51,359 nucleotides of DNA, taken from positions 1 through 51,359 of IMG/VR virus record IMGVR_UViG_3300033405_000987, one strand, 5' to 3'. This DNA comes from a virus. Its lineage: Duplodnaviria; Caudoviricetes. The notes under the pieces are model-generated. The model saw nothing but the letters and a program-made list of their open reading frames with translations. It did not search any database and was not told the origin of the DNA. This document shows, one piece after another, positions 833 to 45,189 of the stretch. The position numbers and the translations under genes are program-made. The number at the start of each line of letters is the position of its first letter. Position 1 is the first letter of the stretch.

Positions 833-1453
833 ATGAGAGATCTTGAAAAAATAGCTGCACAAATGAATTCTGCCTTGAATCAAGACGGACTTCCCTCTGA
901 TTTAACAGAAACAAGAAAACAAGACGAAAACATACTACGCGCAGAGCGTGAGATTATCTCCAGAAAATCTATCCTTTCCACTCAACGTAGCAAGATAAAT
1001 AGCCATGACATGTCATTTTTCCCAAAAGCATTTGGCCTAAAACTCAAAAAAATGAATGACTCATGGGCGATGTTTCACAAAAAATTGAATGTCGGATGGT
1101 TTCAGATTTCTAGCGATGGACTTAGGGTTGTAAAAGAAATAAACACGGAAAAAAGTTTATACAGAATAAAAGTAGTTGCTACAATGCTTGATATACATGA
1201 GTACCAAGATTGGACAAAATCAGTTTTTATCACACACGACCTTGTAGACATTGATGGTCAGACAATTGAAGCCTCCCAGTTTGAAATATTCTATCTTGGC
1301 CCAGTAAAGGGCCACGAATTTATGACTGACATGGTTATTGATAGTATAGAAATACCACGGGTTGCAGGGAGAAAAATCCATATATCCTGCAAAACAAAGG
1401 AAGAAACATTGATAGCTAAAGAGGTATTTTCTTCTTATAAGGTCACCAGCTAA
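833..1453 (+). CDS. AT-rich accessory (moron) hypothetical protein
   Basis: 206-aa ORF, RBS GGGAG upstream, much AT-richer than flanks, opposite strand to late genes. Confidence 0.75.
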   Translation: MRDLEKIAAQMNSALNQDGLPSDLTETRKQDENILRAEREIISRKSILSTQRSKINSHDMSFFPKAFGLKLKKMNDSWAMFHKKLNVGWFQISSDGLRVVKEINTEKSLYRIKVVATMLDIHEYQDWTKSVFITHDLVDIDGQTIEASQFEIFYLGPVKGHEFMTDMVIDSIEIPRVAGRKIHISCKTKEETLIAKEVFSSYKVTS

Positions 1454-40672: not shown

Positions 40673-40873
40673 ATGGATATCAGCGTGAGCTTCGGTGTCG
40701 GCCCGAGCGGCAATGTGGCCCTGGTCCGATTTAAGGGAGTTGGCCAGCGCCCGGAATTCCGCTCGCTGCCTTTGGCCGGACCACCCGAAGAGTCTGTAAA
40801 CGAGATAGAGGCATTCATTCTGGCGCACCTGGAGGGTCCTGCTCAGTGGCAGGGTTGGTTATGGGAGGCGTAG
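40673..40873 (+). CDS. small antisense hypothetical protein
   Basis: MDISVSFG... 66 aa, protein-like composition, weak RBS. Confidence 0.35.
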
Positions 40874-41018
40874 GGAGTGCGCCGGCTGCGTGCGTCGCCA
40901 TGGACTCGACGTCGCGGAACCATGAGCACCTTGTGCGCCGAGCATTGAGCCCCAAGCGGCAGACGTCGTCAGGTGTGAGCGCACCCGGACGAGAGTTGGA
41001 ACAGCGAGCGCAATTCAT
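40815..41018 (-). CDS. small Cys-rich hypothetical protein
   Basis: MNCARC..C.L....C start directly after upstream stop, RBS GGTGAG. Confidence 0.5.
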
Positions 41019-41019
41019 G

Positions 41020-41592
41020 TCACTCACCACGGGTGAGCAGACGGAACAGGATTTCGGACTGGGCTTTTCTTTCAGCGTCCCTGGCAACGTCCCAGGCAAC
41101 GTCCCAGGCAGCGTCCCTGGCAGCGGCCCTGGAAGCGGCCCTGGCAACGTCCCTGGCAGCGGCCCTGGCAACGTCCCAGGCAACGTCCCTGGCAACGTCC
41201 CAGGCAACGTCCCAGGCAGCGGCCCAGGCAGCGGCCCAGGCAGCGGACCTCTCTTCTTCTGTCGCTTGCCCGCGGGCAAAACGACGGGATACCTCAATGG
41301 CTTGGCGAGGGCGCGAGTCATTGGGAAATTTTCGCTCAAAAATCGGCAAAACCCGCTCTGCGCACTCGCAGGCGAACAAACGAGCGAGCTTATCCCGCTC
41401 TACCTCACAATCTGGATGGACATACGATATTGCCCACAGGACATGCTCCATCGGGTTAGAGCAAAGGCCATGGGCCAGTGGGATGGGCTCATCCATTCCG
41501 TGTCGCGGGGGCAGCCCCGCACGGAGGAGCTTGTAGCCATCAGTGCAGGCTCCGGCATCTTTCAGGATGCGCAGGGTGGTGTAGATTGTCAT
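41020..41592 (-). CDS. Imm5-like phage protein with AAW/AAR repeats
   Basis: [19 protein letters not shown]...P.D.RPR.AI..R.FA.G, then (A/D)(A/V)A(W/R) repeats. Confidence 0.8.
41072..41251. repeat. 12-bp coding tandem repeat, ~14-15 units
   Basis: GCA(A/G)CG(T/G)CCC(A/T)G units. Confidence 0.9.
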
Positions 41593-41712: not shown

Positions 41713-41912
41713 GAGGGAGCCGACGCCATCAGAAGCGACGCGAGGTGCGCGGCCTGTTCATCCGTCAGGAAGAACACGTGATGACTCCCCTCCTGAAATG
41801 TGGAAAGGCAAATCGAGCCGTCATTCGTGCGGCAAATGCCTATCCGGCGCTCCGTGTACTCGGGGAAATTGATCCCGTGTTCATGAATCCATGCGCCCTG
41901 GGAGTGGGTCAT
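41709..41912 (-). CDS. hypothetical protein
   Basis: Start MTHSQG at 41912 with GGAG RBS. Confidence 0.5.
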   Translation of the reverse strand: MTHSQGAWIHEHGINFPEYTERRIGICRTNDGSICLSTFQEGSHHVFFLTDEQAAHLASLLMASAPS

Positions 41913-42198
41913 GATTTCTGTCTCCAATATACTGGGTCTTGGGAAAGCATATGGGTGGGTGAAGTCTTGGCCTATCTTCTCAATTCCAGGCCGGGTTTGC
42001 TCCCTGGAGAAACGCATCCAAGAGATGGAAGAGAGGTTGAACGTCCCTCGCTCACAAAATGCGTGTCCAGCGTGCGGGGAAAGCACGTTCTTTGTGGTGA
42101 ACTCGCATTATACAGGCGCACAGGGCAGCGGCATGAAGCGCCGGACCTACAAGTGCAAATCCTGCGGTTTTGTGGAGTCGAGAGATGAGAAACCATGA
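41911..42198 (+). CDS. zinc-ribbon protein, antisense to cro operon
   Basis: CPACG...YKCKSCGF, RBS GGGAG. Confidence 0.65.
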   Translation: MISVSNILGLGKAYGWVKSWPIFSIPGRVCSLEKRIQEMEERLNVPRSQNACPACGESTFFVVNSHYTGAQGSGMKRRTYKCKSCGFVESRDEKP

Positions 42199-42495: not shown

Positions 42496-42546
42496 TTGAT
42501 AGCGCAATCGCTACAGGAGCACAAGTGAAAAAGACCAGATCGCTAC
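42496..42546 (-). promoter_or_regulatory. PR promoter with operators OR1 (42499-42514) and OR2 (42531-42546)
   Basis: Minus TTGTGC-17-TATCAA; ATAGCG-N4-CGCTAC palindrome in spacer; second half-site CGCTAC 32 bp away. Confidence 0.7.
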
Positions 42547-42581: not shown

Positions 42582-43340
42582 ATGCCAAGCTGGAACGATA
42601 CCGCCAGGAAACTGCGAGACCGGATTGATGGAAAGCTTTTTCCGAACCCTAGCGCCTTCGCCACGCAGACCGGCATGACCAAGTCCGACAGGGCGACCCT
42701 CTACAAGTTCATAAACGGCACATCAAAAAGCCCCTACGCACATAATTTCGTAGACTGGCTTGATAAGGTCGGAGGGCGCATCGTCTTTCCAGATGAGGAG
42801 GACTTGGTTCCGAGCAAAGAAATTCAGTTCACGGCTCCGAAGATCGTCCAGGCGGGGGAAGGGAAGCCACCGGAGAGTTCAGATTATTTGGCTGTGCCCT
42901 TGGCCGCTGGGGCAGTCGCGGCCGGACGAGGCCTAGTCCCTGAGGATGCGATAAGAGGCTGGATTCTCGTCTACCGCCATCAGGATTCGATACGGTTCCG
43001 TTCGAACTTGATTGCCGTGGAGGTGGGTAAGGGCCAGGATTCCATGACGCCGACGATATTCCCTGGCGATATCCTGCTCGTGGATCGTAGCGATTTCGAT
43101 CAGGGGTTTAAGCACCCCGGGAATATATTCCTTTGCCGGGAACCACGGGACAATGAAGTCATGGTCAAGCGCGTCGTGCTACAAAAGGCAAACGGAGGGA
43201 CAAACGTCATGTTTTATAGTGACAATTCAATTGAGTATCCTCCTCAAGTATTCAACCTGGAGGAGCATTACGAAAGTGACATTGGGAGGGCCATTATAGG
43301 ACGAGTGGTTTGGTCATGGTCGGACATGTCACGGCGTTAG
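42582..43340 (+). CDS. cI: CI-like repressor (HTH + S24 autopeptidase)
   Basis: N-terminal HTH; VAAG cleavage site, DSM.P.I.PGD.LLVD, VKR, SDN, IIGRVVW. Confidence 0.9.
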   Translation: MPSWNDTARKLRDRIDGKLFPNPSAFATQTGMTKSDRATLYKFINGTSKSPYAHNFVDWLDKVGGRIVFPDEEDLVPSKEIQFTAPKIVQAGEGKPPESSDYLAVPLAAGAVAAGRGLVPEDAIRGWILVYRHQDSIRFRSNLIAVEVGKGQDSMTPTIFPGDILLVDRSDFDQGFKHPGNIFLCREPRDNEVMVKRVVLQKANGGTNVMFYSDNSIEYPPQVFNLEEHYESDIGRAIIGRVVWSWSDMSRR

Positions 43341-44234
43341 GTCACGCTGCCCAATACCAGACACGAGCCAATCCAGAGACACGCCGCGCCGTAAATGTGC
43401 CTCAATCAGCCACGATACAGGGGGGAGTTCGTCTTTTTTTCGAGCTCGGCTGATACTCGACTGAGATGTATTTAGTGCCATTGCAAGTTTTTTGTCAGAA
43501 CTGCACCCTAACCCATCACAAAGGCGATCAATAACAACATCGCCAACGATAGTGGCTACCCTGGTAACAAGATAATATCTTTCTACTACAAATGGTTGGA
43601 AGTACAATTCAATCATACATCGCTTTATACCATTTACCCGTTTTACGCTGAATGTACCGTAGTGCACCTCCCCAAGATGTAGTTTTGCCGACTGAATCAA
43701 GTCAAAAAAAGTCCCCTGCGAATCATTGGGAAAAATGCTTATTATATCTGTACCTGCTGACATAGTATTCCCAAGGCTATTCCTATCTACCTTACACCAA
43801 ATCAATTTAAGTTCACCATCAAGAGCCCAGAGATTGTCAGCAATCCCTTTGCGTCTTTGCGACATTATACGCTCCTCCCATCCCCTGCGTGCGGTCGCAT
43901 CAAACACGATGTCGAAGCTGACAGACTCCTCCTCTGGGCACTCCACAGGTATAGAGTGACAGAGCAGGACTAGGGACTGGCTACCCACGCGGACAAGCCG
44001 TTCCACATTGCCAGATTCTCCTGAGGCTGCGGCCGTTTGCGTCACTTGTCTGATATCCACATCATTGATTATACCCCATAAGTCCCCCCCCTCCAAAATT
44101 TCGTGTTTTCCTACCAGCCGGGAAAAATTCAAATTGGCAAATAATATCCGACCGTTGCGGTGTATCACAATGGGCATTCCGAATGATTTAGCGAGGTTAA
44201 TTAATCCTACTGAAGTGGTTGGGGTTGCGCGCAT
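43329..44234 (-). CDS. PAS-PAS-HTH transcriptional regulator (C-terminal phage CI-type HTH)
   Basis: PIVIHRNGRILFAN..F..L.G ... DATARR..EE (PAS + linker), second PAS-like unit, IDRL....G..SD..LA..L...QSSIS.A...P..W.......GVSLDWL..G.G. Confidence 0.8.
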   Translation of the reverse strand: MRATPTTSVGLINLAKSFGMPIVIHRNGRILFANLNFSRLVGKHEILEGGDLWGIINDVDIRQVTQTAAASGESGNVERLVRVGSQSLVLLCHSIPVECPEEESVSFDIVFDATARRGWEERIMSQRRKGIADNLWALDGELKLIWCKVDRNSLGNTMSAGTDIISIFPNDSQGTFFDLIQSAKLHLGEVHYGTFSVKRVNGIKRCMIELYFQPFVVERYYLVTRVATIVGDVVIDRLCDGLGCSSDKKLAMALNTSQSSISRARKKDELPPVSWLIEAHLRRGVSLDWLVSGIGQRDLTP

Positions 44235-44331
44235 GGCAATTTAATTATCCAAAGCGCAACTTTTTGCCAGGGTATTCCCAAATCATTTTCCCTCTGCCAG
44301 AATGTAACATCTTCGTTCGGGAGGGACTCGC

Positions 44332-44613
44332 ATGGTAGGATGTGTAAATATTGGCGAGGCTTGCGCCAGGATCGTCGCAACTGAAGTGGAAGCGATCACC
44401 AGTGCTGTTGAGCAAGCGAAAGAACACGCCAGCCGGCTGGCTCGCGCGATCGAGCTGCTGGCGCAAGCGTCTGCACGTGGAGACCTAGCTGCTGCGCTGG
44501 TTATCCCTGGGGTAAAAGAAACTCTCTTGGACACCAAAAACAAGCTTATCCTCTCTGGGATTGGCCTTGGCTTCGCTACTCCTCTCGACAAGCTCGCGAA
44601 CCGTCTCGCTTAA
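44332..44613 (+). CDS. small helical protein divergent from PAS-HTH regulator
   Basis: RBS GGGAGGG, 93 aa, followed by own terminator. Confidence 0.65.
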   Translation: MVGCVNIGEACARIVATEVEAITSAVEQAKEHASRLARAIELLAQASARGDLAAALVIPGVKETLLDTKNKLILSGIGLGFATPLDKLANRLA

Positions 44614-44629
44614 TTCCTGCCGCCTGCTC

Positions 44630-44667
44630 AACAAATAGGCCCGGAAAACACTCCGGGCCTATTTGTT
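44630..44667. terminator. bidirectional intrinsic terminator
   Basis: Perfect 16-bp inverted repeat AACAAATAGGCCCGGA-6nt-TCCGGGCCTATTTGTT. Confidence 0.85.
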
Positions 44668-44715
44668 ACTCAATCGCTATTTTCCCCTTGATCTTAGTAG
44701 CGAATGCGCTACTAT
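44665..44715 (+). promoter_or_regulatory. PL promoter with operators OL1 (44697-44712) and OL2 (44665-44680)
   Basis: TTGATC-16-TACTAT; perfect TAGTAGCG-AATG-CGCTACTA palindrome in spacer; second site CAATCGCTAT 32 bp upstream. Confidence 0.75.
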
Positions 44716-44976: not shown

Positions 44977-45189
44977 TCAGATCACACGCTGGAATTGGAA
45001 GCCGTCCCGGATGTTCTCGGCGAAGTAGCTCCCCTTGGAGCTGGCGGCCATAAGGCCATCGAACATGTAACGCGGGACCTGGAAGTAACGGTAGACGGTG
45101 CCGGAATGGAACTCGACCTCAAGGGTGCCAGACAGGGTGTCGAAGCCGACGGAAGCCAGGTTCGAAGATGAGACGGGGGTCCTGTTCAT
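44977..45189 (-). CDS. KTSC domain protein
   Basis: V.SSN..SVG.D....LEVEF.SG.VY.Y..VP......L..A.SKGSYF...IR; RBS AGGAGG. Confidence 0.9.
   Translation of the reverse strand: MNRTPVSSSNLASVGFDTLSGTLEVEFHSGTVYRYFQVPRYMFDGLMAASSKGSYFAENIRDGFQFQRVI

Follow-up and report, generated by a model that had tools for sequence, protein, structure and literature searches.

The window analysed here, the whole 51,359-nucleotide stretch of IMG/VR record IMGVR_UViG_3300033405_000987 (Duplodnaviria; Caudoviricetes), is a provirus record of 51 kb and ~80% completeness. Its immunity region carries, between the repressor gene cI and the leftward early (PL) operon, a cassette of two divergently transcribed genes, one for a regulator with two PAS domains followed by a helix-turn-helix (HTH) domain and one for a small protein of 93 residues, a candidate antirepressor (Table 1). 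The early region is lambdoid by Pfam and PHROG (cI, CII-like protein, replication initiator, exonuclease VIII and RecT). Genes for the head, the terminase and tail fibres are also present; no integrase was found among the annotated genes of this ~80% complete record. The GC content of the cassette is 0.49 against 0.61 for the window, with 1.2% of equal-length windows as low, and at third codon positions it is 0.45 in the regulator gene against 0.81-0.88 in three core genes. An initial annotation made from the sequence letters had described both open reading frames (ORFs), the 12-nucleotide convergent overlap of the regulator gene with the cI 3' end, the AT-richer composition, the two PAS-like domains with a C-terminal phage-CI-type HTH, and a ribosome-binding site before the small ORF, and all of these were found as described.

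Single-sequence Pfam matches to PAS are weak (E 0.05-0.09), and the PAS folds are firm from the family alignment and from an AlphaFold2 model built from a 26-sequence alignment (predicted local distance difference test, pLDDT, 92.4), which contains two PAS-type domains. PAS-A superposes on the phage VqmA-DPO structure (PDB 7dwm) with Z 13.3 and a root-mean-square deviation (rmsd) of 4.7 over 127 aligned residues, and PAS-B, as residues 132-230, on ARNT PAS-B with Z 13.2 and rmsd 2.0 over 99 residues; the comparison spanned residues 4-228, matches within 1 Z are counted as ties, and the values denote similarity of fold only. The alignment, A1, holds the regulator and 25 of the 114 matches obtained at E 0.001 from 1.84 billion representative sequences, the 25 being ~270-315 residues long, 16-27% identical and similar beyond the HTH. 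Close relatives were not found by single-protein searches (a homolog search that returned the query itself, IMG/VR, GTDB patterns with one 25-residue match, and annotated phages). Pfam gave no LuxR/GerE match in the regulator. Across the PAS region, Cys and His stay below 45% conservation in every column of the 26-sequence alignment. LOV-type PAS domains carry a conserved Cys ligand and heme PAS domains a conserved His ligand, so this absence argues against LOV or heme chemistry and gives no support to the redox cue that had been proposed; non-covalent binding of flavin adenine dinucleotide (FAD) may still occur.

For the 93-residue ORF the homolog search returned only the query, no Pfam, PHROG or PADLOC family was matched, the Atlas search gave no named family, and homology to the small-ORF families A and B described below was not detectable. 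The ORF had been credited with its own terminator; the perfect hairpin behind it is far more stable than shuffled sequence and would suit that role, although the terminator scan did not list 44630-44667. In the gap between the two genes the second repeat of the candidate operator, TTATC-N5-CGCAA, lies 15 nucleotides before a weak -35 element read by eye. The related TTGCC-N5-AGCAA occurs in the gaps of two relatives (L117 and L118; L-numbers are labels of fetched loci), whose recognition helix, TSPAMLSRAR, resembles the TSQSSISRAR of the window. The window holds one perfect copy of TTGCS-N5-SGCAA, the site from which the motif was derived, and one-mismatch copies are at the level of chance (8 against 8.2 expected).

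The cassette recurs. Profile A1 was searched against 401 genomes of the order, with five candidates scored per genome, and 47 genomes matched at E 1e-20; nine matches of ~300 residues, in seven genomes, reached E 1e-56 or better. A divergent ORF of 57-101 residues, 53-186 nucleotides from the called regulator start, is present at 8/8 prophage-borne Desulfovibrionales loci with upstream sequence (L037-L044), all of which have phage genes around them (S24 or HTH repressors, integrases, ERF, SSB, Bro-N/ANT and virion proteins); the ninth match, L003, ends at a contig edge. IMG/VR contributed six more records from two lineages, with the cassette intact in four (L055, L056, L062 and L063), broken in L064 and cut in L054, and one further metagenome contig holds a relative that is cut upstream; 52 other IMG/VR loci matched mainly the HTH, and none of them passed the PAS-plus-HTH filter. 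With a crude gene caller applied to ten fetched loci, a divergent small ORF with a ribosome-binding site accompanies 7/7 regulator genes against 7/92 other genes of at least 200 residues, three of the latter seven being cI facing cro, and the pairing of regulator and divergent small ORF is not due to chance. Four further relatives of ~300 residues (L117-L120), in contexts that do not look like phage, came from another sample of 401 genomes. The 85-residue ORF at L117:2085-2342 and L118:9131-9388 is HTH-like by eye and resembles the HTH of its own regulator, with no Pfam match, and could be a dominant-negative partner.

The position of the cassette is variable. It converges directly on cI only in the window and, with a 6-nucleotide gap, in L041; it is flipped in L044, where the small ORF faces cI, and also in L038 and L055. 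In L037, L038, L040, L055, L062 and L063 it lies 0.7-1.8 kb from cI at the end of the tail genes, in L039 and L043 it adjoins an integrase gene, and in L042 it occupies the distal end of the virion gene block. The cassette is a recurring mobile one, and since none of the 30 loci with the closest cI homologs, many of them chromosomal, has the regulator within 1.5 kb, it is an accessory unit.

Proteins ~40-55% identical to the window cI occur in most of the 97 genomes that matched among 301 of the family holding a Halodesulfovibrio metagenome-assembled genome, and from this we infer a host within the Desulfovibrionales. The window cI retains A114-G115, S154 and K196, invariant or nearly so in the cI alignment, which we read as the Ala-Gly, Ser and Lys positions of S24 repressors, and it is likely a RecA-cleavable, autocleaving repressor of this type. 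The two perfect copies of TAGCG-N4-CGCTA in the window bracket the block of cI and cassette, and the gap between regulator and small ORF has neither a perfect nor a one-mismatch copy. Related CI-like S24 repressors, ~45-48% identical to the window cI, occupy apparently fixed chromosomal sites in many Desulfovibrionaceae, with divergent DUF5675 and HTH_17-like genes (L125, L126, L130, L133, L135-L140, L143 and L146), and these are possibly domesticated phage switches.

The small ORFs fall into family A (L037, L040, L041 and L062/63), family B (L038, L055 and L044), a group formed by L039 and L160, and three singletons (window, L042 and L043); homology between families A and B was not detectable. 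The ratio of nonsynonymous to synonymous substitution rates (dN/dS) is 0.09-0.38 in four of six pairs tested, the other two being saturated, and the small ORFs of the relatives are under purifying selection. Repressor and small ORF vary together. The cI proteins at family A loci are 41-56% identical over their aligned parts and those at family B loci 45-76%, against 25-40% between the two, and the window matches neither family in cI or in small ORF. The regulator of L042 is 31-40% identical to family A regulators and has the same promoter spacing, its small ORF is unrelated, and no cI of these types was found in ~39 kb of upstream L042 prophage. L039 has two small-ORF paralogs, one behind the regulator and one ahead of the ERF-SSB-DnaB early genes, on either side of a 107-residue repressor-like gene without S24 domain (called by position; no Pfam match). 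The small-ORF family goes with that of the resident repressor, a pattern that fits the induction modules of a transcription factor and a small ORF (TF-smORF) known from other phages; divergent Qtips likewise accompany divergent cIs (PMC12802170).

Several observations on these loci stand apart. The sister prophage of L039:10096-11383 at the same site, L160:7671-8173, has one small ORF beside the repressor-like gene without S24 domain and no regulator, and the two are a natural pair without and with it. The viral records L062, L063 and L064 share one source number and the same cassette with different cI genes, and in L064 the small ORF and the regulator end are broken. The family A small protein is modelled as a hairpin of two helices (pLDDT 84), for which no specific fold match emerged (best Z 7.9). 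ORFs of 73-76 residues that resemble helical hairpins also lie near phage switches lacking the PAS regulator (L124 and L127, ~1.2 kb after cI; L037:7572-7793; L043:11685-11915), and the two of them that were compared have no significant similarity to the cassette small ORFs.

Most remaining matches of the A1 search are proteins of 470-650 residues with multiple PAS domains that end in the same PAS-PAS-HTH. At 21 of the 23 fetched loci (short flanks; L014-L036 and L045-L050 are loci of this regulator) the gene faces a FadL/OmpP1 channel gene, PF03349 being confirmed on six. Its last two PAS domains and HTH match the profile from end to end (E 1e-29 to 1e-39), host and phage regulators being 15-24% identical. 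All 21 host-type gaps contain TTCAY-N5-RTGAA, against 0.01 expected by shuffling; the motif usually occurs in two copies and precedes a TTGACG promoter. The phage gaps have the same 5-5-5 shape, as tandem pairs that end 13-36 nucleotides before TTGAC; the tandem repeats exceed shuffled sequence in 7/11 gaps (0-2 of 300 shuffles), and the operators of family A differ from the host motif at 0-2 positions. Base 3 of the half-site follows one residue of the recognition helix, Asn with C in the host type and family A, Arg with G in L042, L038, L044, L117, L118 and the window, and Ala with A in L039 and L119, with L043 and L055 lacking a clear site and the sites having been picked partly after the sequences were seen. 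Two other readings of the gaps were discarded: an HcpR/CRP box (GTGA-N6-TCAC) in family A is formed between two tandem TTCAC-N5-GTGAA-like sites, and other lineages lack it, and ATGCC-N5-GGCAG in L117/L118 lies inside the regulator coding sequence.

A query with one protein did not find the host-type regulator in any of five cassette-bearing genomes searched. No VP882 lysogen has both copies of vqmA (PMC10426928), and the non-coexistence seen here may echo this, though genus distribution may explain it. In a tree made by a quick method, with long branches for the window and L039, the host clade is one group with support 100 and the base is open, so the tree cannot orient host against phage origin or the direction of transfer. 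No paper describing the chromosomal regulator was found in the open-access literature. FadL takes up long-chain acyl-homoserine lactones (AHLs) in Sinorhizobium (PMC9938287), and DVU1260, which may differ from the regulator-facing gene, is described as a gene for the transport of long-chain fatty acids (PMC12777485). RpfR PAS binds the Burkholderia diffusible signal factor (BDSF) according to a PDB title.

Taken together, these data suggest, at a probability of about 0.5, that the cassette is a second, signal-driven induction switch that acts through an antirepressor beside the RecA route. The regulator would bind the tandem inverted repeats in the gap, limit its own expression and activate the small gene; the small protein would inactivate the phage's own CI without cleavage, and lysis would start by a route beside that of RecA, so that a dormant virus likely wakes on a chemical cue rather than on DNA damage. 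The parts of this scheme differ in strength. Direct binding of the repeats by the regulator is strongly suggested, and the match between HTH and repeats very probably points to direct control of the small gene. Activation rather than repression of that gene is moderately indicated, because the repeats end 13-36 nucleotides upstream of TTGAC in relatives, and autorepression is suggested because the first repeat sits near or over the regulator start. The repressor is probably, by a modest margin, the target of the small protein. Ligand control by the PAS pair is suggested at a weak to moderate level, and a hydrophobic cargo of the FadL type is a tentative choice of ligand, put forward because the host homolog faces fadL. 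It is still more doubtful that prophages of sulfate-reducing bacteria have repeatedly adopted a reduced version of the host fadL regulator and changed its operator code, an antirepressor matched to the repressor replacing fadL, so that lysis is timed by a fatty acid, a long-chain AHL, a hydrocarbon or a similar hydrophobic molecule; if true, VqmA-Qtip logic would have been invented independently with a lipid-type cue, and an undescribed host sensing system would come to light as well.

A number of observations count against this switch. The candidate operator of the window is suggestive only and not significant alone, 20 of 300 shuffles scoring as high, and the repeats are not significant in 4/11 gaps (window, L041, L043 and L055). 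Identity of the PAS domains between lineages is just ~20-25% and conservation of ligand residues is nil, which leaves ligand sensing tentative, and at ~20% identity the ligand is not transferable from the FadL and RpfR parallels. Shared phage ancestry alone may yield the co-variation, which comprises about five independent lineages, and the cIs that accompany the shared cassette of L062 and L063 are unlike in the first HTH and 56% identical elsewhere. There is no S24 repressor nearby in L042 and L043, the latter a satellite-like element. The low GC, and the location of several cassettes at the end of the tail genes, where morons are typically found, fit a moron. Among L117-L120, two regulators face the 85-residue ORF, one locus is cut and one truncated, and none has a helical small ORF. 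The signal-responsive switch proposed by the initial annotation, analogous to that of VP882 and built differently, thus keeps its conserved layout, HTH-matched repeats and co-variation of small ORF and repressor, and its redox part finds no support in the sequence.

The alternative that survives best, tentative as it is, is a sensor-controlled moron, whose regulator controls the small gene and whose small helical protein hits a host or foreign-phage target (growth arrest, exclusion or inhibition of a host regulator) and not CI. The low GC, the variable position, often at the tail-gene end, the presence in L042 and L043 and the generic two-helix hairpin modelled for family A would all suit it; a host target should, however, keep one small-ORF family, yet the families turn over with repressor type, and a paralog precedes the early lytic genes in L039. 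PADLOC 2.0 (E 0.01), whose library covers only described defence and toxin-antitoxin systems, matched nothing among two regulators and eight small ORFs, which is weak evidence against a moron. A pro-lysogeny module, in which the small protein would stabilise CI or CII in a cIII-like way or block Cro and the signal would keep the phage dormant, appears unlikely. The co-variation with the repressor suits any switch partner, the cassette is often next to cI, and the L039 paralog is placed like cIII of lambda, which lies in the early leftward operon; the characterised TF-smORF modules, on the other hand, all promote lysis in the texts cited (PMC10432266, PMC12802170). It is quite improbable that the regulator mainly retunes host fadL, as the gene of an uptake channel and possible phage receptor, with the small ORF secondary. 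Homology to the fadL-facing regulator and the family A operators are in line with this, and FadL is a receptor of phage T2 in Escherichia coli. VqmA-phage also activates host vqmR (PMC10426928). Against retuning, the recognition helix and candidate site of the window differ from the host type, with no match to the host motif within two mismatches in its gap, and the host-type regulator was not found with one protein query in five cassette-bearing genomes. Convergent transcription into cI, which had been suggested to dampen cI, is very improbable as the source of a lysogeny effect with the small ORF incidental, the overlap in the window and the short gap in L041 being offset by cassettes that are flipped or far from any cI (L042, L043) and always keep the small ORF; since the tail-to-tail overlap is not conserved across loci, dampening would be incidental at most.

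The closest parallel to the proposed antirepressor switch is VqmA-phage/Qtip of vibriophage VP882 (PMC10426928, PMC12802170; PDB 7dwm), also a one-component PAS regulator with a divergent small ORF, a chromosomal host homolog, a small ORF that varies with cI, and an autocleavable cI. The PAS-A superposition on VqmA-phage (Z 13.3) ties with other PAS domains. VqmA-phage has a single PAS and a LuxR-type HTH, unlike the two PAS and 186-CI-type HTH found here, VqmA is not among the 18 PDB profile matches of the regulator, and the protein is not placed in the VqmA family. VqmA-phage/Qtip is carried by linear plasmid phages and the present cassette by integrated Desulfovibrionales prophages and a satellite-like element, and the host homolog faces fadL rather than a small RNA. 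This layout gives the host-receptor and phage-copy arrangement of VqmA-Qtip, apparently built from different parts. Like the modules of phages 72, 63, Apop and ARM81ld (10.1101/2022.09.16.508337; PMC10432266), the cassette pairs a transcription factor with a counter-oriented small ORF in a temperate phage; the small ORFs likewise have no homologs, the genome position varies and, from sequence only, the repressor is of the autocleaving S24 type, as are the cIs of those phages (10.1101/2022.09.16.508337). Their transcription factors are controller-protein-like HTHs or XRE plus LuxR, PAS not being named as a domain in the cited parts of either text, and their small proteins have been shown experimentally to inactivate cI, whereas the antirepressor here is a candidate. 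Those modules were sought only in linear plasmid-like phages (repA-telN or par locus), a search criterion and not a mechanistic need; the window is a provirus record and its relatives are integrated, with integrases. The HTH belongs to the family of coliphage 186 CI (PF07022; PDB 2fjr, E 3.9e-11), where it is N-terminal, unlike the C-terminal HTH behind two PAS domains of the present protein, which is not the immunity repressor. With the fadL/ompP1-facing regulator the phage forms share the last two PAS domains, the HTH, the 5-5-5 operator shape and the divergent layout; they differ in their ~300 residues against 470-650, in lacking the extra N-terminal PAS, and in having a small ORF as partner instead of an outer-membrane channel of 400-430 residues.

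No prior description of a PAS-PAS-HTH/small-ORF cassette was found in the main texts of the open-access literature. The TF-smORF principle is known, and the sensor architecture for that layout, on integrated prophages, is new here; if the proposed switch is real, it would extend such switches from linear plasmid phages to integrated prophages. Among sulfate reducers, phage production in Desulfovibrio piger was for the most part not increased by mitomycin C, and stimuli of another kind have been proposed there (PMC12724379). The cassette offers a defined candidate pathway that runs from the regulator through a predicted operator and promoter to the small protein and the repressor, and three or more other sequence families supply replicates; the host homolog, useful in itself, predicts an uncharacterised fadL regulator with an operator in 21/21 loci.

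Table 1. Features of the cassette and its surroundings in the window.
Feature	Position	Strand	Basis
cI repressor, 252 residues, HTH and S24 peptidase	42582..43340	+	Pfam Peptidase_S24 3.6e-7; phrog_4 5e-18
PAS-PAS-HTH regulator, 301 residues	43329..44234	-	Pfam, family alignment, structure model, profile search
PAS-A, residues 4-130	43845..44225	-	Z 13.3 to 7dwm; profile E 1.5e-7 to DosP PAS
PAS-B, residues 130-228	43551..43847	-	Z 13.2 to ARNT PAS-B; Z 11.9 to RpfR PAS
186-CI-type HTH, residues 234-295, predicted recognition helix TSQSSISRAR	43350..43535	-	PF07022 (Phage_CI_repr) E 1.5e-12; profile E 3.9e-11 to 2fjr
Tail-to-tail overlap of cI and regulator, 12 nucleotides	43329..43340		ORF coordinates
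Candidate tandem operator TTGCG-N5-GGCAA (over regulator start codon) and TTATC-N5-CGCAA	44225..44259		best tandem 5-5-5 repeat, 16/20
Candidate weak promoter of small ORF: TTCCCA, 17 nucleotides, CAGAAT, upstream TG	44275..44303	+	read by eye; 8/12, under promoter-scan threshold
Ribosome-binding site GGAGGG, 6 nucleotides before ATG	44320..44325	+	sequence
Small ORF, 93 residues, candidate antirepressor	44332..44613	+	no detectable homolog
Perfect 16-bp hairpin, likely terminator separating small ORF from PL	44630..44667		z -7.2; 0/200 shuffles as stable
Perfect palindrome TAGCG-N4-CGCTA upstream of cI, likely CI operator (OR side)	42500..42513		perfect match; role inferred from position
Perfect palindrome TAGCG-N4-CGCTA before recombination operon, likely CI operator (OL side)	44698..44711		perfect match

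Other genes of the window were noted as well. The ORF at 833-1453 (+), of 206 residues, follows the largest virion gene, is very AT-rich (GC about 0.39) and is likely a moron; PHROG and PADLOC gave no match for it. A KTSC-domain gene (Pfam 1e-23) at 44977-45189 (-) is an antisense insertion near the start of the PL operon. In the early region, the rightward (PR) operon includes an ORF with a long tandem LPG(T/P) repeat (40815-41339, -), an Imm5-like protein has a tail of Ala-Trp-Asp repeats (41020-41592, -), and a zinc-ribbon ORF of 95 residues (41911-42198, +) lies closely downstream of the cro-like gene, on the opposite strand to the PR operon.

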